Under the pieces are notes generated by a model. The model was not told the DNA's origin. It searched no databases and saw nothing but the letters and a program-made list of their open reading frames with translations. From the UHGV virus genome UHGV-1367859: a stretch of DNA of 64,000 nt; one strand, written 5' to 3'. Shown one piece after another: positions 2,635 through 63,110 of the stretch (its first letter is position 1; each line of letters begins with the position of its first letter). Both the position numbers and the translations under genes were made by a program. The DNA comes from a virus.

Positions 2635-2649
2635 ATCTCAATAAGTTAT

Positions 2650-40652: not shown

Positions 40653-40672
40653 AATATATAAATTTATTTTAG

Positions 40673-40745: not shown

Positions 40746-40779
40746 TTATGCAAAGTTAGTAATAAATTTCTATACTATG

Positions 40780-41172: not shown

Positions 41173-41403
41173 TCACAATTCATCATCAGGCATTCCTCCG
41201 AAGAGTTTATTTCCTGAGAGTATATCAAATTCTTCCTCTGTGATAGTCTTGTAGCATACATATATGAGTAATGCTACAATACCTGTTGCAGGAAAGAAAT
41301 AACCTTGGTCATAGATGCTGTCTACTCCACATATAGAGAACATAGCCATTACCATGGTAGTGTAGAGTAGGAGTCCTTTAAGGACAAGTTTCATTGTCTT
41401 CAT
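41173..41403 (-). CDS. small membrane protein
   Basis: ORF track. Two hydrophobic segments. Confidence 0.4.
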   Translation of the reverse strand: MKTMKLVLKGLLLYTTMVMAMFSICGVDSIYDQGYFFPATGIVALLIYVCYKTITEEEFDILSGNKLFGGMPDDEL

Positions 41404-41440
41404 ATGTCTCTTTCTGGTTTTTCTGTTGTGAGTGCGCCAC

Positions 41441-41767
41441 CTACCATATAGAAGGTAATGCCCTTAAATGATTTCCTTCTCTCTCTCTTGCCTGCTTTAT
41501 TGCTTTGGCTTTGTCATAAGTCTTTTTCACAGCAGTTCTATTAGCTGTGTTATACTCCTCAAGTATTATAGCATAACTGTGTATATCCATATCTACTAGA
41601 GTATATGTCTTTGAGTATTTGACAAGATTGTTCCTTTTGAGAGCAGCCCAGAAATGAGATGACTTTGGACAGCCACATTCTTTCAGGATTATATCCCATT
41701 GCTTCTTGGTGAAGCTTAAGTTATTGAACCAGGATAATCTTTCAACAACTTGTTCTTGCTGTGTCAT
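41441..41767 (-). CDS. hypothetical protein
   Basis: ORF track. Confidence 0.4.
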   Translation of the reverse strand: MTQQEQVVERLSWFNNLSFTKKQWDIILKECGCPKSSHFWAALKRNNLVKYSKTYTLVDMDIHSYAIILEEYNTANRTAVKKTYDKAKAIKQAREREGNHLRALPSIW

Positions 41768-41772
41768 TTGAT

Positions 41773-42066
41773 TTATTCATTGATACCTAACTCTTGTTTG
41801 ATTTGGGTCTGTACTTCTTTAGGTAGGTAATACTTATATTCCTTGCCTGTCTTCTTTGATACTCTCTTGACATAACAAGCACCTTTCTTAGTGATAAAGA
41901 TAGGATACTTGTTACCTTGTTTGTCTTCCCAAATATACTTGGTCTGAGTATCATTTGCAGTAGATTTGGTTTGTTCAACCTTGAAGGTGTCACCTTCTCT
42001 TTTGACCTCTGCATATCCTGTTACTGCAAATATTGATAGGAGAATGCAGATTATGAGCTTTTTCAT
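41773..42066 (-). CDS. secreted small protein (signal peptide MKKLIICILLSIFAVTGYA)
   Basis: ORF track frame. Start moved to internal Met that gives a canonical signal peptide. Confidence 0.4.
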   Translation of the reverse strand: MKKLIICILLSIFAVTGYAEVKREGDTFKVEQTKSTANDTQTKYIWEDKQGNKYPIFITKKGACYVKRVSKKTGKEYKYYLPKEVQTQIKQELGINE

Positions 42067-46221: not shown

Positions 46222-46293
46222 TGCCACTTGGTGTAATGGTCAGCACATCAGATTTTGGTTCTGAGTGTAAGGGTTCAAGTCCTTTAGTGGCAA
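46222..46293 (+). tRNA. tRNA-Gln(UUG)
   Basis: Acceptor TGCCACT/AGTGGCA (U1:A72), D-arm GTGT-AATGGTCA-GCAC, anticodon arm TCAGA-TTTTGGT-TCTGA, T-arm AAGGG-TTCAAGT-CCTTT. Confidence 0.75.
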
Positions 46294-46297
46294 CTAT

Positions 46298-46369
46298 GCT
46301 CCCTTAGTTCAATGGAAGAACAAGGGTCTTCTAAGCCCTAAGTTGTAAGTTCGAGTCTTACAGGGAGTA
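46298..46369 (+). tRNA. tRNA-Arg(UCU)
   Basis: Acceptor GCTCCCT/AGGGAGT, anticodon arm AGGGT-CTTCTAA-GCCCT, T-arm GTAAG-TTCGAGT-CTTAC. Confidence 0.7.
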
Positions 46370-46454
46370 CAAACTTGTTCGTGAAAAGAATGTAAATGGC
46401 AAAGAAGTGAGAATCATTACCTACCTAGCCTGTGAAGGTGCAAGTAGGGTGCAT

Positions 46455-46527
46455 GGTGCCATCTTCTAAATGGTCAGGAAACTGCCCTTTCAAGGCAGTA
46501 ATCTGGGTTCAAACCCCAGTGGCACTA
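46455..46527 (+). tRNA. tRNA-Glu(UUC)
   Basis: Acceptor GGTGCCA/TGGCACT, anticodon arm CTGCC-CTTTCAA-GGCAG, T-arm CTGGG-TTCAAAC-CCCAG. Confidence 0.7.
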
Positions 46528-46534
46528 CAATATA

Positions 46535-46609
46535 TAGCTCATGAAGTGTAATGGTTTTGCATATCACACTGTCAATGTGAGGGATGGGGTTCAATTCCCC
46601 CATGGGCTG
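46535..46609 (+). tRNA. tRNA-Asp(GUC)
   Basis: Anticodon arm TCACA-CTGTCAA-TGTGA, T-arm around GGGG-TTCAATT-CCCC. Acceptor register ambiguous by 1 nt. Confidence 0.6.
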
Positions 46610-46643
46610 CTGGCTATGTAACAAAGGCTCAGAGGAGCCAAAT

Positions 46644-46730
46644 GGAAGTCTAATCTATCAGGGATAGAAGCAGTCTTGAAAACTGAATGCTCATGTGAAA
46701 GTGGGTGGGGTTCGAGTCCTCAGGCTTCCT
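46644..46730 (+). tRNA. tRNA-Ser(UGA), class II long variable arm
   Basis: Acceptor GGAAGTC/GGCTTCC, anticodon loop CTTGAAA, T-arm TGGGG-TTCGAGT-CCTCA. 87 nt. Confidence 0.6.
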
Positions 46731-46732
46731 CT

Positions 46733-46930
46733 ATGATAACAATATTGAGAAGAGAAGGGTGGGTACTCAACCCTAATGATAAAGTAGTCAACTCAATACT
46801 TAAGAGAGTTGAACAGAACAATGGACTATGTCCCTGTCAGAATGACTCTGAGGATAAGCATTGTCCTTGTTCGAACTATAGAGTACTAGACCACTGTTGC
46901 TGCGGTTTATATAAGAAACTTGGAGAGTAA
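46733..46930 (+). CDS. small Cys-rich protein, ferredoxin-thioredoxin-reductase catalytic-subunit-like (CPC...CPC...HCC) candidate
   Basis: MITILRREGWVLNPNDKVVNSILKRVEQNNGLCPCQNDSEDKHCPCSNYRVLDHCCCGLYKKLGE. The ORF-track ORF 46676..46930 has a 5' extension overlapping tRNA-Ser. Confidence 0.35.
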   Translation: MITILRREGWVLNPNDKVVNSILKRVEQNNGLCPCQNDSEDKHCPCSNYRVLDHCCCGLYKKLGE

Positions 46931-47006
46931 TTTATCAAGGTGATAAACCTATCTGCTAAATAGTGTGGTCATTAATTTGGCTTTGGTTCGAGTCCAATGC
47001 TCTCCT
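46922..47006 (+). tRNA. tRNA-Ser(GCU), class II
   Basis: Acceptor GGAGAGT/GCTCTCC, D-arm TTATC..GATAA, anticodon loop CTGCTAA, T-loop TTCGAGT. Confidence 0.6.
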
Positions 47007-47012
47007 CAACAT

Positions 47013-47087
47013 AGAGTAGTAGGGTAATAGGTAACCCCCTTCATTTGGGATGAAGTGATACTGCAAGTTCGAGTCTTGTCTACTCTA
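47013..47087 (+). tRNA. tRNA-Pro(UGG)
   Basis: Acceptor AGAGTAG/CTACTCT (perfect), anticodon arm CTTCA-TTTGGGA-TGAAG, T-arm GCAAG-TTCGAGT-CTTGT. Confidence 0.7.
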
Positions 47088-47093
47088 CTTAAT

Positions 47094-47167
47094 GGGCGTT
47101 GTGGTGTAATTGGCTAACACATCTCCTTTGCAAGGAGAAGTTCAGGGTTCAAGTCCCTCATTGTCCA
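47094..47167 (+). tRNA. tRNA-Ala(UGC)
   Basis: Anticodon arm TCTCC-TTTGCAA-GGAGA, T-arm CAGGG-TTCAAGT-CCCTC. Acceptor has one mismatch. Confidence 0.6.
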
Positions 47168-47252
47168 CTTTGTTTTTCATGTTTTCATAAAATTGTAGGA
47201 CTGTTGTTAGTCCCTCTTTTCGGCAGTTAGAGGATAAAGAAACTGCCCACTT

Positions 47253-47323
47253 TGGGATATAGCTCGAAGGTCGAGCGTGAGACTGTTAATCTCTTGGTGA
47301 GAGTTCGATTCTCTCTATCCCAG
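47253..47323 (+). tRNA. tRNA-Asn(GUU)
   Basis: Acceptor TGGGATA/TATCCCA, D-arm GCTC-GAAGGTC-GAGC, anticodon loop CTGTTAA, T-arm GAGAG-TTCGATT-CTCTC. Confidence 0.7.
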
Positions 47324-47438
47324 CCTAATAAAGAGAATAGTACTAGTGTAAGACTCAACGTAACATGTTCAGATATTAGCTCTGTTCTGAGTGTCGTATA
47401 ACTCAACCTAGCTACAGGGGGTGGTTAAAGGTAGCAAC

Positions 47439-47483
47439 TGGTAGGTATGGTACTAGTAAAAGTTCGATTCTTTTACCTACCAC
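47439..47483 (+). pseudogene. tRNA-like minihelix (7-bp acceptor stem plus T-arm, no D or anticodon arm) immediately 5' of the HNH gene
   Basis: GGTAGGT-ATGGTACTAGT-AAAAG-TTCGATT-CTTTT-ACCTACC-A, only 43 nt. Upstream 115 nt has no other tRNA parts. Confidence 0.3.
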
Positions 47484-47484
47484 T

Positions 47485-47961
47485 ATGAGAAGAAAAGGTA
47501 CAAGTAAAGTATATAGTATCTCTGATAAGGAGTTTATAAATTTAATAAATAGAGTTAATAGTTACTCTGATGCCCTGAGAGCATTAGGACTAACTACTAA
47601 AGGGGGTTCTTCACAAGATGTCTTGAAAAGAAGAATCCAAGAACTAGGATGTTCAACATCTCACTTTGGAGATGTAAGCATAAAATCTCCAACGCAAGTA
47701 TATCCCATTGAGAACATACTAGTAAAGAATAGTAGCTATGCTAATATAGCTTCACTTAAAAGAAGGCTTATAGACAATAAGTTGCTAAAATATGAATGCA
47801 GTAAATGTGGTATATCCTCGTGGAATGGTCAGCCACTATCTCTACATCTAGACCACATAAATGGTATAAATAATGACCATAGATTAGAGAATTTAAGATT
47901 CTTATGCCCTAACTGTCATTCACAGACAAGTACATACGCAGGTAAAAACAAAAGAAAATAA
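47485..47961 (+). CDS. HNH homing endonuclease
   Basis: LHLDHINGINNDHRLENLRFLCPNCHS is an HNH core. Embedded between tRNA-Asn and tRNA-Trp. Confidence 0.8.
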   Translation: MRRKGTSKVYSISDKEFINLINRVNSYSDALRALGLTTKGGSSQDVLKRRIQELGCSTSHFGDVSIKSPTQVYPIENILVKNSSYANIASLKRRLIDNKLLKYECSKCGISSWNGQPLSLHLDHINGINNDHRLENLRFLCPNCHSQTSTYAGKNKRK

Positions 47962-47970
47962 TCATTACTC

Positions 47971-48042
47971 ATTGGTGTAGTGTTAATGGTAGCACAGTGA
48001 ACTCCAAATTCACAAGTGAGGGTTCGATTCCTTCCACCTTTG
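47971..48042 (+). tRNA. tRNA-Trp(CCA)
   Basis: D-arm GTGT-TAATGGTA-GCAC, anticodon arm GTGAA-CTCCAAA-TTCAC, T-arm GAGGG-TTCGATT-CCTTC. Acceptor has 2 mismatches. Confidence 0.55.
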
Positions 48043-48048
48043 CCACAT

Positions 48049-48122
48049 TGGGATATAGCTTAGATGGTTAAAGCATCTGACTGATATTCAGAAGACCGTA
48101 GGTTCAAGTCCCACTATCCCAA
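48049..48122 (+). tRNA. tRNA-Ile(GAU)
   Basis: Acceptor TGGGATA/TATCCCA, D-arm GCTT..AAGC, anticodon arm TCTGA-CTGATAT-TCAGA. Confidence 0.7.
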
Positions 48123-48124
48123 CT

Positions 48125-48196
48125 GTACTAGTAGCTTAATGGTAAAGCACCACACTGTGAATGTGGAAGATGTGAGTTCAATTCTCACCTAGCACC
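48125..48196 (+). tRNA. tRNA-His(GUG)
   Basis: Anticodon arm CCACA-CTGTGAA-TGTGG, T-arm GTGAG-TTCAATT-CTCAC, discriminator C. Confidence 0.65.
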
Positions 48197-48204
48197 CCAA
48201 CATA

Positions 48205-48279
48205 TGGATGTATCCCCTGTGTCTTATACACACTAGAAAGGGTAGTTGGTCACACGCAGGTTCAAGCCCTGCCATCCAT
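48205..48279 (+). ncRNA. atypical tRNA-like gene: perfect acceptor (ATGGATG/CATCCAT) and T-arm (GCAGG-TTCAAGC-CCTGC), hairpin TGTGT-CTTATAC-ACACA (UAU), no recognisable D-arm
   Basis: Manual folding. Could be tRNA-Ile(UAU)-like with a noncanonical core, or a degenerate copy. Confidence 0.3.
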
Positions 48280-48338
48280 ACAATACTCATGAGTGGCATA
48301 GTAGTCCCTGGGGTGGTTTCAAACTGCTATGTCTGTAT

Positions 48339-48410
48339 CTCTAGGATTCCGAATGGTTAGGAGCTGGTCTGCAAAACCAGTATTTGTGGGTTCAATTCCC
48401 ACCCTAGAGT
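48339..48410 (+). tRNA. tRNA-Cys(GCA)
   Basis: Acceptor CTCTAGG/CCTAGAG, anticodon arm CTGGT-CTGCAAA-ACCAG, T-arm GTGGG-TTCAATT-CCCAC. Confidence 0.7.
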
Positions 48411-48522
48411 CCTTGGAGGAGCAGGTAGTCTATCCATGGAAAAACCTCCGTAAAAACAGCTACAATTGACTACTAAGGAGAAGGAAGGGATAAATAACTC
48501 CTTAACAAATACCCTTCTACCA

Positions 48523-48594
48523 CTTCCTATAGCTCAATGGTAGAGCTACTGACTCTTAATCAGAAGGTTCAAGGTTCAAATCCTTGTAGGAAGA
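48523..48594 (+). tRNA. tRNA-Lys(CUU)
   Basis: Acceptor CTTCCTA/TAGGAAG, D-arm GCTC-AATGGTA-GAGC, anticodon loop CTCTTAA, T-arm CAAGG-TTCAAAT-CCTTG. Confidence 0.7.
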
Positions 48595-48776
48595 CATAAC
48601 ATTTTAATTAAATAACAGTGTTATGAGAGTACTTAGATTTATTAAGAAAGCAGTCAAAGCTTATTTTAGAATGACTGCTGAGAACTATTCTATAAGGTGT
48701 ACAGGTGATGTATTTATACCTGTCCCTTAAGGATAGTTCCTCCTTCCTCTCTGACAAGTTATTTGATAATAAATAT

Positions 48777-48857
48777 GGGAGTATCGCGTAGTGGCAATCG
48801 CAGTTGACTGTAAATCAACCCTCTAAGAGTTCATAGGTTCGAGTCCTTTTGCTCCCA
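48777..48857 (+). tRNA. tRNA-Tyr(GUA), long variable arm
   Basis: Acceptor GGGAGTA/TGCTCCC, anticodon arm GTTGA-CTGTAAA-TCAAC, T-loop TTCGAGT. Confidence 0.65.
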
Positions 48858-48922
48858 CTTCAATAGAACTTTGGCTTTTATCTATAAGCCTGACAGGGGT
48901 AGAGACCTGAATAGATAATATT

Positions 48923-48995
48923 GGAACTTTGGTGTAGATGGTTTGTCACATCAGATTGAAGCTCTGAGGGCTGGGGTTCGACTCCCTGAGGTTCC
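48923..48995 (+). tRNA. tRNA-Phe(GAA)
   Basis: Acceptor GGAACTT/AGGTTCC, anticodon arm TCAGA-TTGAAGC-TCTGA, T-loop TTCGACT. Confidence 0.7.
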
Positions 48996-49019
48996 ACTAC
49001 ATAGTAAAAAGAGAAAGAT

Positions 49020-49619
49020 ATGGTAATAAAAAGAGGGGATAAAGGTCCTAATGTAAAGCTCCTTCAGAGGAAGCTTAATCTGAAAGATGATGGAATATTT
49101 GGACCTCTCACAGAAGAAGCAGTCAAAGAATTTCAGAAGGCTAATGGTCTTGTTGTAGATGGCATAGTGGGAAATAACACATGGTCTAAGCTGAATGTAA
49201 CTCAGAACAAGAGGAATATAAAGGAAATTATAGTTCATTGTTCTGCTACTCCTGAAGGTGAGGACTTTACTACTGCGCAGATTAAGCAATGGCACCTTCA
49301 AAGAGGTTTCTCTGATATAGGTTATCATTATGTAATCTATAGAGATGGGTCAATACATGCTGGTAGACCAGAGGCTATATCTGGAGCACACTGTACTGGG
49401 CACAATACAATGTCTATTGGAGTATGCTATATCGGAGGATGTGCCAAGGATGGAAAAACTCCAAAAGATACTAGAACTGAAGCTCAAAAAGCTGCTCTAG
49501 TACAGCTTCTTAAACAGCTTAAAGCAAAGTACCCTAATGCTACAATACATGGCCATAGGGAGTTTGCAAATAAAGCATGTCCAAGTTTTGATGCTAAAGC
49601 AGAATATACTTCTCTCTAA
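49020..49619 (+). CDS. N-acetylmuramoyl-L-alanine amidase (Amidase_2/PGRP) with N-terminal peptidoglycan-binding domain; endolysin
   Basis: PG_binding_1-like GDKGPNVKLLQRKLNLKDDGIFGPLTEEAV...NNTWSKL. Amidase_2 core HCSATPEG...GYHYVIYRDG...HGHREF...ACPSFD. Confidence 0.8.
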   Translation: MVIKRGDKGPNVKLLQRKLNLKDDGIFGPLTEEAVKEFQKANGLVVDGIVGNNTWSKLNVTQNKRNIKEIIVHCSATPEGEDFTTAQIKQWHLQRGFSDIGYHYVIYRDGSIHAGRPEAISGAHCTGHNTMSIGVCYIGGCAKDGKTPKDTRTEAQKAALVQLLKQLKAKYPNATIHGHREFANKACPSFDAKAEYTSL

Positions 49620-49634
49620 AAAGAGAGACAATAA

Positions 49635-49716
49635 GCCTCTGTGGTGAAATGGTAAACACAAGGGACTTAAAATCCCTCGGATTTAATCCTTGAGGGTTCA
49701 AATCCCTCCAGAGGTA
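49635..49716 (+). tRNA. tRNA-Leu(UAA), class II
   Basis: Acceptor GCCTCTG/CAGAGGT, anticodon arm AGGGA-CTTAAAA-TCCCT, T-arm GAGGG-TTCAAAT-CCCTC. Confidence 0.7.
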
Positions 49717-49720
49717 CAAT

Positions 49721-49807
49721 GCCCCCTTGGTGGAATGGTAGACACGCTGGTCTTAGGAACCAGTATGAAGTAATAGTAGTGTGAGGGTTCGAGTCTCTCA
49801 GGGGGTA
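49721..49807 (+). tRNA. tRNA-Leu(UAG), class II
   Basis: Acceptor GCCCCCT/AGGGGGT, anticodon arm CTGGT-CTTAGGA-ACCAG, T-arm GAGGG-TTCGAGT-CTCTC. Confidence 0.7.
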
Positions 49808-50253
49808 CTGAAATAAGAAATTAAGTATTTATATAACATTGAGTTTTACTGTAAATATTCAGGTGGCGTAATTCATGTTATCATAACCCCTTTACTATTT
49901 GTAAAAGTATGAAATACACAGTTTAGTATAATAAACAGAAATATCAAGTAGACATATCTGATAATAATATAGCTATTTATGATTCCTATAAAATCACTTC
50001 ATTATCTGATATGAGTAGTTTCTCATTCATTTAAAAGCTAGATTTTACCCATACAGTTCTATTAATAACAGAACTATGTTTAGCTTACTTAATGAATGGA
50101 GAACTCACAATTTATTATATTCTCTTGGTGTTCAAAAAGAAAGAACTGCTAGTGTAGACCTGGAGTCTAATCAATCTTGGTATATGACCGTAGCTTATGC
50201 TATATTATCTCCATTTTATTTACACTTTTATTAAAAATTTATTATCAATTTAT

Positions 50254-50284
50254 TTGGTAATTTAAATTATTTTTCATACCTTTG
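50254..50284 (+). promoter_or_regulatory. Bacteroidetes-type promoter (TTG-N20-TACCTTTG) dedicated to the suppressor tRNA
   Basis: TTG 50254-56, TACCTTTG 50277..50284. tRNA starts 18 nt downstream. Confidence 0.5.
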
Positions 50285-50301
50285 CATTGTTAATAAAATA
50301 T

Positions 50302-50373
50302 TGCCTCATGGTGTAATGGTTAGCACAGAGGACTCTAAATCCTTTGGTCTCTGTTCGAGCCAGAGTGGGGCGA
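50302..50373 (+). tRNA. amber-suppressor tRNA(CUA) with glutamine-type identity (reads UAG)
   Basis: Acceptor TGCCTCA/TGGGGCG (U1), D-arm GTGT-AATGGTTA-GCAC nearly identical to tRNA-Gln(UUG) at 46222, anticodon arm GAGGA-CTCTAAA-TCCTT gives anticodon CUA, T-arm CTCTG-TTCGAGC-CAGAG. Confidence 0.7.
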
Positions 50374-50706
50374 CTAACTTTAATCACAATGAATAAGGAA
50401 GCTTTAAAATGGTTTATGTCCAATGTAATGCTCTAGCTAGAGCAGATTGACAAAGAGGTAAGTAACTCACTGTTGCAGGATGAACAGTTTGTTCTTGATT
50501 TTTATGATAAATTAAATGAAATAAGTGTTAGAAAATAAAAAAAATATAATTATGGAACAGGTAAAGATACCACACCCTATTGCTAGGATGGTGCTAACAC
50601 AGACTAAAATTATTCTTAATAGCCCCAACAACCAAGACAAAGAGTGGCTCAAAACTTTTAAAGAAGAACTTAATAAACTTATTAATCCTGAGTAATCTTT
50701 AGGAAA

Positions 50707-50779
50707 GCTTCCTTAGTTCAGCTGGTAGAACTACTGTTTTGTACTCAGTATGTCAGGGGTTCGAGTCCTCTAGGAAGCT
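50707..50779 (+). tRNA. tRNA-Thr(UGU)
   Basis: Acceptor GCTTCCT/AGGAAGC, D-arm GTTC-AGCTGGTA-GAAC, anticodon loop TTTGTAC, T-arm AGGGG-TTCGAGT-CCTCT. Confidence 0.65.
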
Positions 50780-50788
50780 CAAGTAAGT

Positions 50789-50859
50789 GCAGGATTAGTT
50801 TAATGGTAAAATGCCACTCTTCCAAAGTGGATTTGGGGGTTCGATTCTCCTATCCTGCT
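50789..50859 (+). tRNA. tRNA-Gly(UCC)
   Basis: Acceptor GCAGGAT/ATCCTGC (perfect), anticodon arm CCACT-CTTCCAA-AGTGG, T-arm GGGGG-TTCGATT-CTCCT. Confidence 0.7.
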
Positions 50860-50865
50860 CTATAT

Positions 50866-50938
50866 TGTGGGGTGTTAGCAGTGGTAGCTAGTCAGGCTCA
50901 TAACCTGAAGGTCGGAGGTTCGAGTCCTCCTCCCGCAA
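50866..50938 (+). tRNA. tRNA with CAU anticodon (Met / fMet / Ile-lysidine not distinguishable)
   Basis: D-arm TAGC-AGTGGTA-GCTA, anticodon arm TCAGG-CTCATAA-CCTGA, T-arm GGAGG-TTCGAGT-CCTCC. Confidence 0.65.
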
Positions 50939-50954
50939 CTAAATCGAAATATTA

Positions 50955-52979: not shown

Positions 52980-53645
52980 ATGTACACAGTATATAAACAC
53001 ACCAATAAAGTTAATGGCAAGGTCTACATAGGTCAGACCTCTTTTAATGTGGGAAAGAGATGGAAAGAGGGGAGAGGATACAAAACAGGTATCTTTAAGA
53101 GAGCCATAGAAAAGTATGGGTGGGATAACTTTAAGCATGATATAATAAAAGAAGGACTAACTAAAGAGGAAGCTAATCTGTTAGAGATAACCTTAATTAA
53201 AGAATATAAGGAGCTAGGCATATCTTATAATATAACTGATGGCGGGGAAGGGTCTCTTGGATATAGGCATTCTGAAGAGACTAGAAGAAAAATGAGTGTT
53301 AAAGGCAAAGGTAAAAAGATACCTGAGCATGTTAAGCTCTTAGTAAGTTCCAGATTCAAAGGTGTTCCTCTCACAATAGAGCATAAATTAAAGATAAGTT
53401 TATCCTTACAAGGAAAGCCTAAGTCTGAAGAGGCTAAGCTTAAGATGAGACTTAATCACAGTTATCATGACTTAATTGAAATAGTTAAATGTGATAAAGA
53501 AGGAAATATAATTTGTACATACCCATCAATAGCTGATGCAGCTAGAGATACTGGAGTTTTGGAGACTCACATATCAAGATGTGCTAGAGGTAAAAGACCA
53601 TCAGCTGGAGGTTATAAATGGAAATATAAAAATGAAACTACTTAA
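52980..53645 (+). CDS. GIY-YIG homing endonuclease with NUMOD-type DNA-binding repeats
   Basis: VYKHTNKVNGKVYIGQT (GIY...YIG), conserved R/E/N region. Repeated HSEETRRKMS / TIEHKLKIS / SEEAKLKM modules. Confidence 0.75.
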   Translation: MYTVYKHTNKVNGKVYIGQTSFNVGKRWKEGRGYKTGIFKRAIEKYGWDNFKHDIIKEGLTKEEANLLEITLIKEYKELGISYNITDGGEGSLGYRHSEETRRKMSVKGKGKKIPEHVKLLVSSRFKGVPLTIEHKLKISLSLQGKPKSEEAKLKMRLNHSYHDLIEIVKCDKEGNIICTYPSIADAARDTGVLETHISRCARGKRPSAGGYKWKYKNETT

Positions 53646-54174
53646 ATTTGAAGGTTATAAGGTAATCATATCTCCTGAAGCTTTAGCATTAACTCCTTTT
53701 AAGAAGATATGGAACAGGGACAGGTCTGCAAACAAAAATAGAGCAATAGCCGAGATTTCCTACATATATTTTATGGCTGACCCAAGAAGTGACTATCAGT
53801 ACATTATAGATGAGGAAAGTAGGAAGGCTTCTATTAAGGAAGGTGAAGGCTTACCTAATGACTGGGAGCCTGATAACCTTGTACTTGAGGCAATGGAGTT
53901 CTATAAGACTTTCAAGCCAGCATCTGCATTACTTCTTGAAGATACCAGAGTGGCAGTTGATAAGCTGAGGACTCTATTGAGGGAAATAGACCTTGGTGCC
54001 CTTGATGATAAGGGTAAACCTATCTATACTCTCAATACTATCACTGCAACTATCAAGCAGATTCCTACTCTTGTGAAAGATTTGAATGAAGCTGAAGCAG
54101 CTATTGCCAAGGAAATTGCTCAGAGCAATAAGGTAAGAGGTGCTCAGGAAAAAGCAATGTATGAAGATTTGTAA
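53628..54174 (+). CDS. hypothetical protein (candidate small terminase by position only)
   Basis: ORF track 53536..54174 trimmed to first Met after the GIY-YIG stop (MKLLKFEGYKV...). Two genes upstream of TerL. Confidence 0.3.
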
Positions 54175-54583
54175 TATGACACTTGAAGATGTAATTGAAT
54201 CACTTAATGTGCATATACTGAATAAAAGAAGAGACTTGCACATCTTGTCAAACAGCCAGGAACACCTTGTTCTACAGAGAGTTATAGAACCTCATCCTAC
54301 ATTTAAGTCATATAAGAGGTATGAGTTTATATTATGGGTGGTTGGTAATGATTCAAAGTATAGATTACTTACTTTGACTAAGCAGGTTAATATGAGTGAT
54401 ATTCCTTCATATGCACAAGAGAGCTTTATTAAAGCTACAGAATCTGAATTTGTTACTGGGCTATTCGGCCTTATTCTAGATGGCAAGTCTTTTAATAAAA
54501 AAGACAGAACAATACTTGAAGATATTATCTATGGAGAATACCTCGGCTATGGAGATGAATGTGTACTAGACCCCCTTGACTGA
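54140..54583 (+). CDS. hypothetical protein
   Basis: ORF track. Confidence 0.4.
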   Translation: MLRKKQCMKICNMTLEDVIESLNVHILNKRRDLHILSNSQEHLVLQRVIEPHPTFKSYKRYEFILWVVGNDSKYRLLTLTKQVNMSDIPSYAQESFIKATESEFVTGLFGLILDGKSFNKKDRTILEDIIYGEYLGYGDECVLDPLD

Positions 54584-57500
54584 AGAACTCCTTGGGTCTT
54601 TACCTGAGGAAGTCAAGGAGGAGTTATTGGACACTATAAATAGTGTAGAACTTATAAAAAGACTTATCTCTCCTAATAGGGTATATGCTAAGGATAGACC
54701 AAGAGATGAGCAAGGAAGGATTATAGTAGACCTTGCCAATCCTCATATACTTGAGGATATGGATTATTTCAGACAACCAGCCTTACACTTTATGAAGCAT
54801 GGCTGCTATACTTTTCTAAGACCAAATTCTAATCCTAACAGTGAATACAGAAAGCACTGGGATGAGGAGATGAGGAGATGTAGAGAGGGTTATGTAAGGG
54901 AGAGTGATGGAGAATGGGTCACAGGATTCCTTTATTGGTTTCTTAATTACTGTCCCATGATGGTAAATAAGGTAATTTCTGGCACAAGGAAAGCTGTCAG
55001 AGTTGAGTCTTTCCCCTTCTTCTTTGAAGGAATCTATTGGAGATTTCACTATCTTCATCAAGCAAGAGAGGCTGGTAAACATGCCATAGAACTTGCAAAG
55101 AGAGGTTGTGCAAAGTCATATAGTCTTGCAAGTATAATGTCTCACAACCTTATACTTGGTGAATCTACTGAAGTAAAGAGGAGGGTTATTACTGTACTTA
55201 CTGCTTATCAGAAAGAGTATCTTAGTGACAGTAAGGATGGCACACTCTCTAAGTTCAAACCTGGAATTAACTTCTCCTTCAAAAATACTCCATTCCCTAG
55301 GCTCATGTTAAAGAACTCTCCTAATGAGATGGCATGGCAGATGGGCTACAAGGATGAGTTTGGTATTGAAAGTGGGTCATTGAATCAGGTGCTTGCTGTT
55401 TCTGCAAAGGATGACTCAGAGAAGTTAAGAGGTAAGAGAGGTTGGATTCTATTCGAGGAGATGGGTTCTTTTAAGGGACTTCTATCCCTGTATGACATCA
55501 CAAGAAAATCTGTAGAAGATGGTGACTATACATTTGCTACAATGTACCTTGTAGGTTGTGTATGTGCTGGTACTAAGGTATGGACATTAGATGGCAGGAA
55601 TATCAATATAGAGGATTTAAAGAGAGAGGATGGTATCATAGGATTTACAGACTCCTTTGAGTCAGGTACTGAACCTAATATTCGCCTCACAAGAGGGATT
55701 ACCAAAGAACCTATAATGAGTTCTATAAGTATTGCTAAAAAACCATGTGTACTTATTAAACTGAGTAATGGAAATGAACTTAGATGCTCTACAGACCATC
55801 CAATTCTTACTCAGAAACAAAGAATGAATCATAATGGGTCTATAAGGTATTATGAAGAAGTATTCAAAAATGCTGGAGCTTTAAGTGTAGGAGATAGAAT
55901 TATAGAGAGTAGGGAAGTTCCAATATTTGGGACAGATACCATGTTTGACCCTAGATTAGTAGGTATGCTTATTGGAGATGGTTCTTATGGATTAAGGCAA
56001 TCCCCCAAGTATAGTTCTGAGGATAAAGAGCTTTTAGACTATGTAAAGCATAGATATGAATGGTCATTATCTGCTACTCATATTACCAAGAAAGGAAAAA
56101 TATACGAGGATATAAGAATTAAAGGTATTTGTAATAAATTAAGAGAATTAGGTATTTAGGGGCAAGTAAAATCCAATAAAAGGCTTCCTATCAACTATTA
56201 GACTCTTACAAGAGATGATACCTCACTATTGCTATCTGGATTATATGATACTGATGGTAGTATAAGCTTTAATAGAGACGGATATATATCTTTAACTCAA
56301 AGCAATAGGAAAATATTAGAGCAAGTTAAAGTACTGTGGAGAAAATTTGGAGTAGTTGGCACTATTGTGGAGACCAAGCCAAAACTATGTTCTGATAGGA
56401 AAGATAGAAATTCTTGGTTTACTCTATCTATATCAGGGAGACATAATTGTACAAGAGTGTGTGGTGTGCTTCAACTTCTTGTTCCACACAAGAGAGATTG
56501 CCTTAAAAGGATAATGGACTATTATAATAGCAATCCGAGTATGAAGGCTCAAAAATATCCAGAGGATATAATAGTTCACAAAGTTACTTCTGTAGAAGAG
56601 ATAGGTGAACAAGAAGTATATAATTTAACTGCTGGATTAAGTCATACCTACTTGGCTAACAATATAGTAACTCATAATACTGCTGCTGAGGATGAGTCAG
56701 ACTTCAGTTCGGCAAAAACTCTTCTTTACAATCCAGATGGTTACAATATTCTGGCTATTGAGAATGTCTATGACAGACCTAAGCAAGGAAAGCCTACCTT
56801 TGGATTTTTCTTTCCTTCTTATGTAAATAGGGCAGGATGTTACAACAAGGATGGTGTTTCTGATGTAACAAAGGCTCTCATAGAAATTCTGTTGGCAAGA
56901 CACAAAGCTAAATATTCTGCTGACCCTAAGTCAGTATTAAGAGTTATTGCCGAGGACCCAATTACACCAGCTGAAGCTATCATTAAAGTGAAGGCTGCCT
57001 ACTTTCCTACAGTAGCTCTTACTGAGAGATTGGCTCAACTTGACTCAGACCCTCATGCTTTTGATGATGTTTACATAGGTAATCTTGCCCTAGCAAGTGG
57101 TAATAAGGTAGAGTTTAGAATAGGTAATGATGTGCCTATCAGAAAGTATGGAGTTGACAATTCAACAGTAGGTGCTATTGAGATATTTGAAATGCCTGAG
57201 AAACAAGCAAATGGGGATGATTTCAATATGAGATATATTATAGGCCATGACCCTGTGGATAATGATTAGGCAGAGTCTTCTTCTCTTTCTTCAACCTTTG
57301 TACTTGACCTGTTTACTGACAGAATTGTAGCAGAATACACTGGTAGGCAGGCATTTGCAGATGATAACTTTGAGATAGTAAGAATGCTGTGTCTATTCTA
57401 TAATGCCAAGTGCATGTACGAGGCTCATCCATATAGTCAGTCTGTACCAACACCAAATGGTATGAAACTGTGGAAGGATGTTAAAATAGGGGATAAACTG

Positions 57501-58904
57501 TTTTCCCCCACAAAGGGTGAAGTAACAGTAACTAATATACCAGTTGATGAGTACATGCCTATATATAAGGTTAAATTAGCTGATGGCAGAATTGTAGAAG
57601 CTAGTAATAATCATATATGGCTAGTATATAAAGGAACTTCTAGAACTCCTATCGAAATTACTACAGAAGAAATGCTTAGGTCAGGGTTAATAACTAAACA
57701 CAAGCAACATAAGTTTTTTATACCTGAGCATAATGGGGTTGATTATAGTTATAAAGAATTGCTCATAGACCCCTATACTATGGGTTTATTGCTTTCTGAA
57801 GGGAGTCTAACAGGAGGTCATTGTGGCAAAAATTATGTACAGATGTCCTCTTCTAGGGAAGATATGGATTTCTACAAAAAGAATATCCCATATAGAGTTA
57901 ACTATATTGGTAACAAGGGGTACTCTTGGCATATTTATATTCCAGGATGTAGAGATATAATGACTAAATATGGGTTATATGGAGCTACAAGTCACACTAA
58001 GTTCATTCCAAATGAATATCTTTTCAGTAACTATGTTCAGAGAATGGAACTACTGAGGGGAATAATGGATGGAGATGGGTGTGCCAGAACTAGGGGGGCT
58101 AGTGTATTTATTACATGCTCACAGTCACTTGCAAATAATGTATTATCCTTAGCTAGAAGTTTAGGGATGAAAGCATGGCTTCAGACTCCTAAAGAAGGGG
58201 TATATAGAGTGTTGATATCTTCCATATATAAGATATTCAAACTCCCTAGGAAAGTAGTGGAGCAACATACTTATAAGCCTTATAGTAAAGGAAGTAGAGC
58301 CTCAGCTATATTAGGAAAGACTGCGATAGATAGTATTAAATATTCTCACATGGAAATGGGCAAATGTGTCACTGTAGACTCAGATGATGGACTATATATG
58401 ATAGGAGATTATGTAGTAACTCATAATTGTAATAAGAAAGGACTATATGCCTATTTCAATAAAATGAATTGCACACACCTACTGGCAGATACTCCTGAAT
58501 ATTTAAGAGACAAACAGATGATTAAGTATTCTGCCTTTGGCTCAAATGCAAAAGGTATCAATGCGAATGCTACTATCAACAATTATGCTAATAACCTGAT
58601 AAGGGATTGGCTACTTCAGCCAGTTCCAACTATAATAAAGGAGGATGGAGAAGAGAAAGAGGTCAATATTCCAAGGCTCTATTCTCTAAGAAATAGAGCA
58701 TTACTTGAAGAGTTAATTTCCTACACTCCTGAACTTAATGTGGATAGAATCAGGGCATTAGGTATGGTTATGCTGTATAGACAAGAGAAGATTATACTGT
58801 ATAGAGATAATCTTAATGCTAAGGCACAGGAGGAAGTCAGTAGTTCATACTTAGGCAATGATTCTTTCTTCCAAAGGAATTACTCCCAAGGGTATATACA
58901 GTAA
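54576..58904 (+). CDS. terL: terminase large subunit, one 1443-codon frame containing 3 in-frame TAG codons and two inteins
   Basis: ORF-track ORFs 54576..56159, 56229..57269 and 57384..58904 share one frame, separated only by TAG at 56157, 56199, 57267. Walker A-like ELAKRGCAKSYS, Walker B WILFEEMG, nuclease motif IIGHDPVDND. Start may lie further upstream (frame open from 54480). Confidence 0.7.
55557..56678 (+). mobile_element. intein 1 in TerL (LAGLIDADG type), itself containing two in-frame TAG codons
   Basis: Starts CVCAGTKVWTLDG (block A), block B STDHPIL, LAGLIDADG motifs LIGDGSYG and LSGLYDTDGSIS, ends NNIVTHN|T. Inserted at ...ATMYLVG|TAAED near the ATPase coupling motif. Confidence 0.7.
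57441..58427 (+). mobile_element. intein 2 in TerL (LAGLIDADG type) in the nuclease domain
   Basis: Block B EASNNHIWLV, LAGLIDADG motifs LLSEGSLTGG and IMDGDGCA, ends GDYVVTHN|C. N-terminal boundary uncertain (Ser 57441 or Cys 57411). Confidence 0.6.
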
Positions 58905-59004
58905 ATTTAGCAAAAAAGAGTACTAAGACTTAATATTTTACTTATGGGCTTGCACAAGTTAAAGGTTTTGCTTACCTTTGCAGCACATTTAAGTTGAAGA
59001 ATAT

Positions 59005-61404
59005 ATGAGTGATTTCACAAATTTACCCCCACAACAACTGCCATTCTCCAGAAAGAATAAGGCTTGGAGAAAGAAGCACCTTGACTGGGCTGGCTCTAAG
59101 ACATTTTTCAACTATTCTTTGGTAAGGAAGAGTGTGATACATAAGAAAATCAACTATGATTTACTTAATGGTAGGCTTCACATGAGTGACCTTGCAATGG
59201 TATTGAACCCTGATAACATAAAGGCAGGTTACATACCTGAAAGGATTCAACATTACCCTATAATGAATAGTAAGCTGAATGTTCTTAGGGGAGAAGAGTC
59301 CGATAGAGTATTTGACTATAGGGTAGTTGTAACTAATCCAAATGCTATTTCTGAAATAGAGAATAATAAAAAGCAGGAATTACTTGCAAGAGTTCAGCAA
59401 CTATTAGCTGAGGAGACTCAATCAGAGGAAGAGTTCAATGCAGAGCTTGAAAAACTCAATGACTTCTTTACTTTTGAGTGGCAAGACATGAGAGAGGTAA
59501 GAGCCAATGCTCTCCTTAATCACTACTCTAAAGAGCTTAATTTCCCCTTCCTCTTTAACCAAGGTTTTACTGATGCAATGGCAGTAGGTGAAGAGATTTA
59601 CCAATGTGATATTGTAGGTGGTGAACCTATCATAGAAAGACTAAATCCTCTTAAAGTCAGAGTATTCAAGTCAGGATATAGTAACAGGATTGAGGATGCT
59701 GATATGATTGTACTTGAGGACTATTGGAGTCCTGGTAAAATCATAGACACTTATTATGATGTCCTTACCAAAAAGGACATGGAGTACATAGAAAAGATGC
59801 CCAATAACACAGACCAAGTAACTGACTCTATGGATAACATAGATGATAGAATGGGGTTTGTAAATGGGCACATGATAGGGGAAGAATTTACTTCTCAGGA
59901 AGGTTTCTTCTGGGACCCCATAGGAATGACAGATGGTGTAGGCACTTCACTTCTTCCTTTTGATGTTGCAGGAAATATAAGGGTACTTAGAGTTTACTGG
60001 AAATCAAGAAGGAGAATTAAGAAAGTTAAGTCTTACGACCCTCAGACAGGTGAAGAGGTATTTAATCTCTACCCAGAAACTTACGTTATAGATAAGGACA
60101 AAGGTGAGGAGGAAAAGATATTATATATCAATGAAGCCTGGGAAGGGACAAAGATAGGTAATGACATCTATGTCAACATGAGACCTAGAGTAGTTCAGTA
60201 TAACAGACTATCCAATCCTTCAAGGTGCCATTTTGGTATTATAGGTTCTATCTATAACCTTAATGACAACAAGCCTTTCTCTCTTGTTGATATGATGAAG
60301 CCCTATAACTATCTCTATGATACAATTCATGATAGGCTCAACAAGCTAATCTCAAGAAACTGGGGTATGCTTATTAACCTTGACCTTGCTAAGGTTCCTA
60401 AAGGATGGGAGATAGAGAAATGGATGTACTTTGCTAAGACTAATGGTATTGTAGTTACAGATAGTTTTAAGGAAGGCAATATTGGTGCTGCTACAGGTAA
60501 GCTTGCAGGTGCTCTTAACAATGCAAGTTCTGGAGTTGTCAATGCTGAACTTGGTAATACTATACAGCAATATACCAATCTTCTTGAGTTTATCAAGATG
60601 GAAATGTCTGATGTGGCTGGTATTTCTAGGCAAAGAGAAGGTCAGATAAGTAATAGAGAGACTGTTGGTGGTGTCGAAAGAGCTACCTTACAATCTTCTC
60701 ATATAACTGAATGGCTCTTTATCATACATGATGATGTAAAGAAGAGGGTTCTTGAGGCATTCCTTGAAACAGCTAAGATAGCTTTAAGAGGCAGAAGTAA
60801 GAAGTTCCAGTATATTCTTTCTGATAATTCAAGTAAGGTTATGGACATAGATGGAGATGAGTTCTCTGAAAATGATTATGGCCTTGTTGTAGATAATAGT
60901 AATGGACTACAGGAGTTACAGCAGAAGATGGATATGCTTGCTCAGGCAGCTTTGCAGAATCAGACTCTTACCTTCTCCACTATCATGAAGCTCTATAATA
61001 GCTCTTCTCTTGCTGAAAAACAGAGAATGGTTGAGAAGAATGAACAGGAGCTTATGCAAAGACAGCAGGAAGCTCAACAGCAGCAATTACAGGCTCAGCA
61101 ACAATAGGCTCAGATGGAAGCTCAGATAAGGGAAGCTGAAATGCAGCTCAAAGATACAATGAATCAGAGAGATAATGAGACTAAGATACTTATAGCAGGT
61201 ATAGGTTCTCAAAGTCAGGAAGATGGCATCCAAGAGCAGGAGTTTTCTGAAGAGGCAAGAGCTAATCTGTTTGAAAAGATGAGAGAGTTTGATGAGAGGC
61301 TCAAACTTGACAGAGAAAGGTTAGCCTTTGATAAGAAGAAAGCTCAAACTGATGCTGAACTCAAAAGAAAATAGATTAATAAGAAACCAAATACTAGTAA
61401 GTAA
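59005..61404 (+). CDS. portal protein (putative), with in-frame TAG at 61105 in a poly-Gln run and TAG at 61372 before the TAA/TGA stops
   Basis: ORF-track ORFs 59005..61107 and 61114..61374 share one frame (...LQAQQQ-TAG-AQMEAQ...). ~790 aa directly downstream of terL. Assignment is positional and size-based. Confidence 0.5.
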
Positions 61405-62318
61405 TGAGAAAATTTGATAATATAATACATTCAAATTCAGCCCCTCCTACCAATAGTCTGTGGCTCCATAATGACAAACTTCAATACCATAACAATGGCA
61501 AATGGACTGATATAATATTAACGATAGGAGAAGACAATCCAGAGGCTAAGTTAAAGTTTGAAGAGAGAGAACTGAGTCCCCTACATGACTATGTACCTGT
61601 TATACTTGTAAATAGAGACCGCGACGCGCCACTCAAAATTTTAGCAACGTTTTATAATGGTCAAGTAACAGCAATTGCCGATGGCAAGGCTATTATTTTC
61701 AATGTAGACTACAATGAGAATTGGCTTGTAAAGGAGACTAGAATTATTGACCTTACTCTACTTCCTACCTATGTTGACCTTGAACTAGGTGACTCTCCTG
61801 AGATTGAAGCATATAATAGAGAACAGCTGTCTAGGGTGGCAGGAACATAGTTCCTTGTTCATGCTGACTATGGCATTGGAGTAGGTTCTTGGTATTATAA
61901 TGCAGGTGGAGAAGCTACCATCACTACAGCATCAGGTAACAGAGTGCATTACATATTAACTGCGGATGGAGCTTGTAGAAGGGATGCTGACCACTTTGAC
62001 CATTCTGAATTATTTTATGATTTAGGGGTTATTAACTTAGCTGAAATAACTCCTACAACTATAATAAATAAAGAGATAACTGACTCTGTAGGGGTGGCTC
62101 AGTTCAAAAAAGCTTCGAATGTAGTTCTGACTGTTCACACTTCAAATGGAGATTTTGAAGTTAATTGCCCTCAGGTTTCAATGGGTCCTATTCAAAAGAC
62201 ATTTAATAGTCCTAGCATTGTAGCTGGTAATGAAGATAGTTGGAATTATCTTAAGATAATAGCTAACATCCAAACTGACCCAAGCAAAGTATTAATCACT
62301 ATTGAGGCAATGCAATGA
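61404..62318 (+). CDS. structural-module hypothetical protein with one in-frame TAG (61848)
   Basis: ORF-track ORFs 61404..61850 and 61944..62318 share one frame. TGA stop. Confidence 0.45.
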
Positions 62319-63110
62319 GAAAGTTTAGAGCAATAGTACAAACTCCAAAAGAACCATAGGACCATGAAGTCTTATGGTATTGGAAGGGTAATCTACTATA
62401 CTGGAATAATGGAGGTTGGGAACCATTTCATACCAATATTAAAGCTTCAGATATAAAATTTGAGTCTATCTTTTTTGATAATAAAGATAATGTAGATGAG
62501 GTACTAAGGGCATTACTTGAGATAGTTATAAGTAACCAATGGAAAATAGAGAATGCTTTTACAGTAATTGAAGCTGACAATATCCTTACTAATTCATTCT
62601 TTATTGATAGTACTAAGTATTGGTTATCTGAGATTCTTCAACCTTTTACAGTAGGGGCTAAATTTATTAAGGTAGGGAAAGGGTTTCTCTCTAAACAGAG
62701 AGCTAAAGCTGCTGTAATCAGAGAAGATGGAGTTCCTGTATTAGCTGTAAAGGGTTCCACTATACCTTGTACCCTTACTTAGCCTTTCTTATTCTTAAAT
62801 CTGGAAGCAATAGACCCTGATTATAAATTCCCATTCTATGTTACTTTAACATTCAAATTTAAAGGAACTTCATTTGGTAATATAGAAATAGCTACCGTAG
62901 ATTAGGATGGTGAGTCTATTGAAATAAAAGATACTTTGAGAATAGAACCTGATAATAAATGGCACATATATAAAACTACTTTTTTACTTGATAGGTATAA
63001 AGGAATAAGGTTTAATTTAAATGCTGATGTAAGGATAAAGGGGTTAAATATGAGAATGAATGAGGCTAGGACCCTTCATCTCAAGCCAGAAAGTTTAATT
63101 AATAAATAAT
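62319..63110 (+). CDS. hypothetical protein with three in-frame TAG codons, TAA stop
   Basis: Hand translation MRKFRAIVQTPKEP-TAG-DHEVLWYWKGNLLYWNNGGWEPF...-TAG-...-TAG-...LINK-TAA. No ORF-track entry because TAG splits it below cutoff. Confidence 0.4.

Follow-up and report, generated by a model that had tools for sequence, protein, structure and literature searches.

It is documented that the terminase of a crAss-like phage can be interrupted by inteins and at the same time be read through in-frame TAG codons: Yutin et al. (2021) described a terminase large subunit (TerL) with two inteins and TAG recoding in the Delta-group cMAG OBYQ01000140 (their Fig. 7b; PMC7886860). In this study, we examine the TerL gene of the virus genome UHGV-1367859, a stretch of 64,000 nucleotides given as one strand, 5' to 3', which we refer to as the window and to which coordinates apply unless another sequence is named. 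We consider it very likely that this gene is a two-intein, TAG-recoded TerL whose precursor, about 166 kDa with glutamine at the TAGs, is spliced to a protein of 85.7 kDa. As in the window, TerL of OBYQ01000140 consists of three in-frame extein fragments and two intein-endonuclease elements, carries TAGs in extein as well as intein, and belongs to a late-gene recoding that depends on a suppressor tRNA. Unlike the window, which is of the beta group (Steigviridae) and has four TAGs in TerL, OBYQ01000140 is a heavily recoded member of the Delta family, and the likeness is drawn from the published description, which gives neither intein class nor insertion sites (PMC7886860). In the beta-group genome OFRY01000050 a TAG suppressor has just been acquired and TAGs are starting to accumulate in TerL (PMC7886860); it may represent the lineage of the window. 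What the window adds to the two-intein, TAG-recoded crAss-like TerL already known is modest, namely a nuclease-site intein of predicted class 3 with Cys in the position after it (Cys+1), near-identical alleles that differ in intein content, and a hint, from a single lineage, that ties a TAG-bearing intein to the suppressor tRNA.

In mycobacteriophages, TerL is the preferred intein host, and class 1 and class 3 inteins occupy its P-loop and C-motif sites (Kelley et al., 2016; PMC5050341). Experiments on several of them demonstrated splicing and endonuclease activity, and intein-free alleles are present in related phages (PMC5050341). The window differs in TerL family and in genetic-code context, and also in the sites used: in the mycobacteriophages, the seven sites found all fall within the ATPase domain (PMC5050341), whereas one site of the window, site c, appears to lie in the nuclease domain after a conserved Glu, which makes it less usual. 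Class 3 inteins are defined by a Trp-Cys-Thr (WCT) triplet, with Trp at position 12 of block B, Cys at position 4 of block F and Thr at position 5 of block G, and it is the block F Cys, not residue 1, that attacks the N-terminal junction (PMC2807308); Ser or Thr is typical at +1 (PMC2807308, PMC6195587, PMC5222942). In actinobacteriophages, 287 class 3 inteins were counted (bioRxiv 10.1101/2025.01.02.630785). Within our incomplete coverage of the literature, we did not find class 3 inteins or a nuclease-domain site described in Crassvirales TerL.

The terminase gene, its exteins and its inteins

The window is from a crAss-like phage. Megablast with positions 54000-59200 matched only Bacteroides phages of the Kehishuvirus/crAss001 type (Steigviridae), at about 78% nucleotide identity, and the features under the matches are annotated as large terminase subunit. 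The translation is colinear with the 763-amino acid TerL of crAss001 (gp19), with 79% amino acid identity, two large insertions excepted. Moreover, the spliced sequence matches PHROG 6681, "terminase large subunit" (E=7e-95), and a portal homolog (71% identity to crAss001) is encoded directly downstream. On these comparisons we identify the gene as the TerL gene of a crAss-like (Steigviridae, Kehishuvirus-like) phage. Pfam assigned no family to the separate extein pieces or to spliced TerL, even at E-values up to 10, and PDB sequence searches with spliced TerL and with an 11-sequence crAss TerL profile returned nothing relevant, crAss TerLs being too divergent for such matches; sequence comparison thus gave no way of mapping the insertion sites onto a solved TerL.

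An earlier note on this DNA placed the gene at 54576-58904 with three TAGs. That frame is indeed open over 1,443 codons and ends in TAA at 58902, its three internal stops all being TAG (56157, 56199 and 57267), and gene calling with the standard code splits the region into three open reading frames (ORFs). The beginning of the gene had to be moved: homology to crAss001 TerL extends upstream of the TTG at 54576, which is an internal Leu codon, and what looked like a stop ahead of the gene, at 54567, is the fourth of its in-frame TAGs. Judged by the N-termini of the homologs, the start is most likely ATG 54531 (MENTSAMEMNVY, then the TAG, then TPLTEE...), although other ATGs close by are possible. 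The parts of the gene are as follows, with L007, L010 and L012 denoting relatives set out further below.

54531 to 58904, + strand: TerL precursor coding sequence, 1,457 codons plus TAA, based on alignment to the TerLs of crAss001, L007, L010 and L012
54531 to 55556, + strand: N-extein (amino acids 1-342), N-terminal part of the ATPase, with Walker A KRGCAKS at 55098-55118 and Walker B GWILFEE at 55440-55460
55557 to 56678, + strand: intein 1 (374 amino acids, 42.5 kDa), assigned to class 1, running from Cys1 to a terminal HN, with Thr at +1
56679 to 57422, + strand: middle extein (amino acids 717-964), covering the end of the ATPase domain, the linker and the first half of the nuclease domain
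57423 to 58427, + strand: intein 2 (335 amino acids, 37.9 kDa), class 3 type, beginning with Ala1 (AHPYSQS), with the +1 Cys at 58428-58430
58428 to 58901, + strand: C-extein (amino acids 1300-1457), second half of the nuclease domain, including NVDRIRALG

When the insertions are taken out, the extein junctions close without gaps at both sites against the intein-free TerLs of crAss001, L010 and L012, and the joined exteins are colinear with them throughout, which bears out the proposal of two LAGLIDADG inteins in TerL; the megablast match to crAss001 TerL begins at window position 56678. The motifs on which that proposal leaned are all in the sequence: KRGCAKS, ILFEE (within GWILFEE) and IIGHDPVDND, the last (57237-57266) in the middle extein, which also contains ...FYNAKCMYE. 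By alignment, then, the inteins interrupt the ATPase and nuclease parts of TerL and their excision gives a colinear intein-free protein, for which we compute 748 amino acids and 85.7 kDa rather than the product of about 70 kDa that had been expected.

With regard to the catalytic residues, comparison to T4 gp17 by hhalign puts KRGCAKS and LFEE in register with Walker A K166 and Walker B D255-E256 (a weak match, E=0.024, probability 2%), and YIVGHD, CMYE-x-N-xxG and NVDR opposite D401, VYIE458-L-N-STG and HDD542, respectively (E=0.37, non-significant). We take these numbers to be those of the T4 gp17 catalytic residues; its positions 401, 458 and 542 do hold D, E and D. Numbered without inteins, the corresponding residues are D533, E590 and D696, which do not vary among 11 crAss TerLs. 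Site b, occupied by intein 1 between G342 and T343, is probably the ATPase coupling (C) motif, just before which the hhalign alignment ends, and site c, occupied by intein 2, would lie directly after the conserved nuclease Glu of ...CMYE.

Intein 1 is inserted exactly between ...TMYLVG and TAAEDE..., as seen against five intein-free TerLs, so that the limits proposed earlier (374 amino acids, CVCAGTK...IVTHN followed by Thr) proved exact. It has Cys1, block B CSTDHPIL (TxxH), block F VYNLTAG, a C-terminal THN with Thr at +1, and the LAGLIDADG motifs LVGMLIGDGSY and LLSGLYDTDGS; Pfam finds LAGLIDADG_3 (5e-16) and Intein_splicing (5.4e-12, 46.2 bits against a cut-off of 35.8). Homologs 33-54% identical that keep the catalytic blocks are present at the identical TerL site in L008, cr53_1 and Dulem virus 42, heavily TAG-recoded crAss-like phages of other families in whose TerL genes the recoding includes the inteins. 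These features identify intein 1 as a canonical class 1 LAGLIDADG intein.

Intein 2 had been described as about 330 amino acids ending in ...DYVVTHN before Cys. It is there with that end, and its actual length is 335 amino acids; the N-terminus, left unstated, is precursor residue Ala965 at nucleotide 57423. Intein-free relatives have ...NAKC(M/L)YE-S-NKKG... at this point and the window has ...NAKCMYE(AHPYSQ...DYVVTHN)CNKKG..., and from this comparison the first residue of the intein is Ala and the +1 Ser has been replaced by Cys. The junction closes against crAss001, L007, L010 and L012, and the N-terminal boundary is fixed by related inteins at other TerL sites, which start with AHPY (AFAY in cr111_1). 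The Cys of CMYE was considered as residue 1 and ruled out, as CMYE is conserved extein in all intein-free relatives and AHPY recurs elsewhere.

The splicing blocks of intein 2 are block B GRIVEASNNHIW (His64 and Trp66), block F GKCVTVD (Cys315, precursor residue 1279) and a C-terminal T333-H-N335. In an alignment of nine family members (29-73% identity) that covers three TerL sites and two non-TerL hosts, His64-x-Trp66, Lys-Cys315-(V/I)-Thr-Val-Asp and Thr333-His-Asn335 are invariant. Ala1 is present in most of them, the two non-TerL members having Pro or Gln, which are likewise non-nucleophilic, and the +1 residue is Cys or Ser in members inserted in the P-loop. Cys315 and Thr-His-Asn are invariant also in a 13-member alignment, in which Trp66 falls short of invariance because truncated homologs are included. 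HMMER aligns W66, C315 and T333 to Trp67, Cys118 and Thr137 of the Mycobacterium smegmatis DnaBi1 class 3 intein (PDB 6BS8; PMC6195587). Searched against PDB, the family profile matched solved inteins at 1.9e-16 to 9e-12, among them gp41-1 (C1A/F65W/D107C; 1.9e-16), Msm DnaBi1 (6BS8; 1.9e-13) and MchDnaB-1 (about 1e-12), with PI-PkoII and PI-SceI at about 1e-7. The AlphaFold model of intein 2 has pLDDT 93.8 and pTM 0.91; its top Foldseek matches are TliVMA, PI-SceI, PI-PfuI and PI-PkoII (E 7e-16 to 3e-9), class 3 DnaB inteins fit its splicing domain (TMt 0.77), and its endonuclease fold matches PI-SceI and I-DmoI. The Hint and LAGLIDADG similarity that the earlier note proposed to look for is thus found by Pfam for intein 1 and by the family profile and Foldseek of the model for intein 2.

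Intein 2 resembles the inteins of mycobacteriophage Bethlehem DnaB, M. smegmatis DnaBi1 (PDB 6BS8) and Bvi IcmO in the lack of an N-terminal nucleophile, the WCT triplet, a block B His without the class 1 Thr, and the C-terminal Asn (PMC2807308, PMC6195587, PMC5222942), and it shares Cys at +1 with Bvi IcmO. In contrast to these, it resides in TerL of a Bacteroides-type phage and has a full LAGLIDADG endonuclease, whereas DnaBi1 and Bvi IcmO are mini-inteins; its identity to solved structures in the Foldseek alignments is low, about 11-28%. We therefore predict from its residues that intein 2 is of the class 3 type and that its splicing chemistry differs from that of inteins with Cys or Ser at position 1: the N-terminal junction would be attacked by Cys315, the N-extein would next be transferred to Cys+1, and finally Asn335 would cyclize.

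There is a small chance that intein 2 departs from this route, either as a class 2 intein (KlbA-like, in which Cys+1 attacks the N-terminal junction) or as a degenerate insertion that does not splice and leaves TerL inactive or the phage defective. Ala1 with Cys+1 is the arrangement of class 2 as well (PMC2807308), Cys+1 is rare in class 3 (PMC5222942), and the Pfam Intein_splicing model gives intein 2 only E=0.14. However, the WCT triplet of intein 2 is complete and invariant in its family down to 29% identity, whereas KlbA inteins are without WCT and their residue 4 of block F is Asp (PMC2807308). The Bvi IcmO intein keeps the class 3 route despite its Cys+1 and requires the block F Cys, for which Cys+1 is no substitute (PMC5222942). 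The best sequence matches of intein 2 among mini-intein structures include class 3 DnaB inteins, and as TerL is essential, the persistence of the site c intein lineage in diverged phages argues for function.

The LAGLIDADG motifs of intein 2 are TMGLLLSEGS and LLRGIMDGDGC (Pfam LAGLIDADG_3, 1.6e-6). Each LAGLIDADG motif in both inteins ends with an acidic residue, and both inteins appear to carry intact LAGLIDADG homing endonucleases.

In-frame TAG codons and their predicted decoding

The four TAGs of TerL fall in exteins and in intein 1, and the window encodes a tRNA that could read them.

54567 to 54569, + strand: TAG 1, codon 13, N-extein; CAG in L007, L010 and L012, CAA in crAss001
56157 to 56159, + strand: TAG 2, codon 543, intein 1 between the LAGLIDADG motifs; TAG in L007, with L010, L012 and crAss001 lacking the intein
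56199 to 56201, + strand: TAG 3, codon 557, intein 1; TAG in L007, Gln in the L008 intein (54% identical), with L010, L012 and crAss001 lacking the intein
57267 to 57269, + strand: TAG 4, codon 913, nuclease extein (DPVDND-TAG-AESS); TAG in L007, CAG in L010 and L012, CAA in crAss001
50302 to 50374, + strand: suppressor tRNA with anticodon CUA and Gln-like acceptor and D arms, found by ARAGORN (Rfam tRNA, 55 bits)
46222 to 50939, + strand, and 40672 to 41082, - strand: tRNA array of 23 genes

TAG 1 stands at a Gln (MNKYQTE in crAss001) that is invariant in crAss001, cr111_1 and DAC15. Of 37 Gln positions in TerL, four are TAG and 33 are CAA or CAG, so that recoding in this gene is at a low level. 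Recoding of TAG to Gln in the late genes is known in Crassvirales (PMC7886860; bioRxiv 10.64898/2026.08.21.746148), and we predict the same for the window: the phage's own Gln-type tRNA(CUA) would read the four TAGs as Gln, and the TerL precursor would be made only then, as would the products of the other late genes.

That TAG is read as another amino acid, such as Tyr, Ser or pyrrolysine, is improbable. ARAGORN labels the tRNA(CUA) "Pyl", TAG 2 stands opposite Tyr or Ser in distant inteins, and two TAGs of the portal gene align to Ile and Ala in crAss001. The label, however, follows from the anticodon alone, and the acceptor and D arms are as in the window's own tRNA-Gln(UUG) and in the CTA-anticodon tRNA of cr53_1 that is annotated as tRNA-Gln. 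Furthermore, Gln is the aligned residue at the two extein TAGs and at one intein TAG, these TAGs are a single C-to-T change from CAG in relatives 90-99% identical, and TAG-to-Gln is the reassignment reported for Crassvirales in the two studies cited above.

Still less probable is it that the TAGs are real stops, which would make TerL a decayed or fragmented gene of three or four ORFs, or the endonuclease of intein 1 a pseudogene. Three ORFs are what the standard code yields, and public gene callers fragment similar loci, for example that of Dulem virus 42. Against this, the stops are all TAG, the 1,457 codons containing neither TAA nor TGA nor a frameshift; they stand in place of Gln codons; a cognate suppressor tRNA is encoded in the window; both TAGs of intein 1 are kept in L007, in a stretch that is 99.7% identical; and the catalytic motifs of TerL and of both inteins are intact.

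The reading of TAG as Gln would extend to the neighbors of TerL. In-frame TAGs are present in the late genes of the + strand (TerL, portal and the next two) and absent from the interior of the long genes of the - strand.

59005 to 61404, + strand: portal gene, with in-frame TAGs at 61105 and 61372, the first in a poly-Gln run (AQQQ-TAG-AQ)
61401 to 62318 and 62306 to 63109, + strand: two genes after the portal, with one and three TAGs

The portal ORF ends at 61107 under the standard code, about 100 codons below the length of the crAss001 portal, which it matches (799 versus 806 amino acids) only when TAG 61105 is read through. These TAGs would therefore seem to be ordinary Gln codons of late-gene recoding and not a switch specific to the inteins. 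The earlier note rightly counted two TAGs in intein 1, but its conclusion that only the homing-endonuclease part depends on suppression is misleading, as TAGs are also at codon 13 and in the nuclease extein; with a TAG at codon 13 of the N-extein, no TerL would be made beyond residue 12 without read-through.

Both the window and the L007 contig encode the tRNA(CUA), which is missing from the syntenic tRNA arrays of four relatives with TAG-free TerL. It sits within a gap of about 900 nucleotides between tRNA-Leu(tag) and tRNA-Thr(tgt), a gap that measures 125-400 nucleotides in relatives without it, and thus looks like a discrete insertion in the array. The ORF at 49020-49616, beside the array, proved by sequence search to be a widespread gene. 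Outside the late block, the small ORFs at 13813-14298 (-), 41378-41776 (-) and 12638-13132 (+) have their only TAG near the 3' end, which fits with TAG being still a genuine stop in early genes. Rfam also matches a tmRNA (RF00023) at 39606-40001 (-) with 69.5 bits (cut-off 47) over the full model, which ARAGORN does not report; this putative phage tmRNA adjoins a pair of tRNA-Arg genes, and the genome is one with a predicted stop-codon reassignment.

Intein alleles among related phages

Comparison to relatives distinguishes four insertion sites in Steigviridae TerL: site a in the Walker A P-loop, site b (LVG/T), site c (YE/) and site d (FGSN/), where the slash marks the point of insertion. Inteins of the intein 2 family, here called AHPY inteins, are polymorphic for presence and absence at three of them, as intein 1 is at site b.

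Window: site a empty, site b with intein 1, site c with intein 2, site d empty; four TAGs in TerL
L007 (IMG/VR UViG_3300045988_037736, 101 kb), TerL at 2501-6892: site a with an AHPY intein, site b with intein 1, sites c and d empty; three TAGs
L007, empty site c: CMYES/NKKG, in nucleotides ...TGCATGTATGAA/TCCAATAAGAAGGGCCTG...
L010 and L012: about 90% amino acid identity to the window; sites a to d all empty; no TAGs
L009 and L011 (IMG/VR UViG_3300045988_025205 and _031323), TerL at 2501-5743: close to the window (96% in the N-extein); AHPY intein at site d only; no TAGs
L020, cr111_1 and DAC15: more distant; AHPY-type intein at site a; sites b, c and d empty; no TAGs

The nearest of these, L007, is about 98% identical to the window in nucleotides of the flanks and 99.7% over 2.3 kb including intein 1. 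Its site a intein (341 amino acids, class 3 by its residues, KRG/A...N/CAKS) is only 36% identical to intein 2, and a recent transposition of the L007 P-loop intein was thus ruled out as the origin of intein 2. The site d intein of L009 and L011 is an AHPY class 3 intein of 333 amino acids in the C-terminal domain (FGSN/A to C KGIN); in P0011, a site d carrier, the +1 residue is Ser. Altogether, the AHPY inteins of other Steigviridae TerLs (P-loop in cr111_1 NC_055880, DAC15 NC_055832, L007 and L020; FGSN/ in L009, L011 and P0011; site c in P0001-P0006) are 36-73% identical to intein 2 and share its Ala1/WCT/THN signature and LAGLIDADG core.

Site c itself is occupied, with Cys+1 as in the window, in the metagenome proteins P0001-P0006 (49-73% identity to intein 2, so that the closest site c allele is only 73% identical), in L034 and L036, and in five JGI metagenome contigs (L197-L201), where the occupied junction is seen. 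The +1 codon is TGT or TGC (Cys) in all occupied and TCC or TCA (Ser) in all empty site c alleles compared. Site b is empty in those site c carriers whose upstream TerL is readable (L034, L198, L199 and L200). The combination of sites b and c is seen in the window only, each component being present elsewhere.

The divergence between the window and L007 is clustered at site c.

57419 to 58469, + strand: putative co-conversion tract around intein 2, comprising extein nucleotides 57419-57422 and 58428-58469

Sixteen of the 28 mismatches in 3,369 aligned nucleotides fall within the 46 extein nucleotides straddling the site (binomial P=4e-23), and identity is 100% directly outside them. This patch is the pattern expected from co-conversion during endonuclease-mediated homing. 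In a search for a donor of the tract, L034 and L036 proved no closer to the window than empty alleles are, and the metagenome contigs gave no exact match. Taken with the presence and absence of the inteins in relatives 90-99% identical, the pattern suggests that both inteins behave as mobile elements within the phage population.

TerL of L034 (ENA ERZ27271068 k141_273162, 99 kb) is split, besides its site c intein, at GHDP/VDNDQ by about 680 nucleotides (5320-6060) with an HNH_3 ORF. This insertion had no Rfam family match and looks like an intron. Because P0001-P0005 all begin at MVDNDQ, such an HNH-type interruption of TerL may be common. Although crAss-like phages do carry group I/II introns with endonuclease ORFs (PMC7886860) and the TerL of L034 has the HNH-ORF insertion, we give almost no credence to removal of the two insertions of the window as RNA rather than by protein splicing, given that both are in frame, with intein block A at their beginning and block G at their end, directly against the exteins, that the Hint fold is supported by sequence and structure comparison (Pfam, profile and Foldseek), and that Rfam has no intron match in the window.

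Class 3 LAGLIDADG inteins of the intein 2 type were also seen in two metagenome proteins other than TerL, P0019 and P0020: in one host, which has a tail-tube domain like that of T4 gp19, the intein begins with Pro1 and is followed by Thr+1; in the other, an ATPase of the AAA_25/RecA type, these residues are Gln1 and Ser+1. A free-standing GIY-YIG/NUMOD homing-endonuclease gene is at 52980-53645 (+), two genes upstream of TerL (Pfam GIY-YIG 6e-8, NUMOD3 1e-6); in crAss001, a comparable place is taken by the endonuclease gene gp18.

Weight of the reading and its implications

Several points weigh against a two-intein, TAG-recoded TerL with a class 3 intein at the nuclease site. The Pfam Intein_splicing model alone leaves intein 2 below threshold, and Cys+1 is atypical for class 3, Bvi IcmO being the sole example known from 2010 to 2016 (PMC2807308, PMC5222942). 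Intein 1 has Asn in place of the usual Asp at block F position 4, and the Asn is kept in relatives. TAG 2 does not align to Gln in distant inteins, in a column that is variable. The hhalign alignments that place the sites on T4 gp17 catalytic residues are statistically poor. Finally, the association between tRNA(CUA) and intein 1 comes from a single lineage.

With regard to that association, among close relatives intein 1 is found only in the lineage with tRNA(CUA), that is, the window and L007, and the four TAG-free, suppressor-free relatives are without it. It is a tentative idea, and one we think probably wrong, that the genetic code gates the exchange of mobile elements. If this held in general, an intein with amber codons could home only into phages that suppress TAG, since elsewhere it would truncate an essential gene, and acquisition of a suppressor would open the genome to a new pool of selfish elements. 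Also tentative is a second novel element, by which one Cys+1 class 3 family would have colonized at least three catalytic sites of TerL, one of them a nuclease-domain site absent from the mycobacteriophage TerL survey (PMC5050341).

Current understanding is not overturned by this TerL locus. It does offer a natural allele series (no intein, a with b, b with c, and c or d alone) in a lineage that recently gained a TAG suppressor, which is convenient for studying intein homing among co-circulating, abundant gut phages and the moves of class 3 inteins to new sites, and which also suits the question of whether code reassignment limits or permits the exchange of mobile elements. Few class 3 inteins with Cys+1 are known; those described here, with Ala1 and WCT, add to them and may interest protein engineers.

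For annotation, an essential gene is here called as three unrelated ORFs, and its recovery needs TAG read as Gln together with masking of inteins. TerL of Dulem virus 42 is fragmented in RefSeq. In DAC15 (NC_055832), the product of 2898-6230 (1,110 amino acids) aligns end to end with crAss TerL and has a P-loop intein, and it bears the RefSeq name "DarB-like antirestriction", which is probably an annotation artifact caused by the intein. The same label also lies over intein-bearing terminases or helicases in several other phage records.

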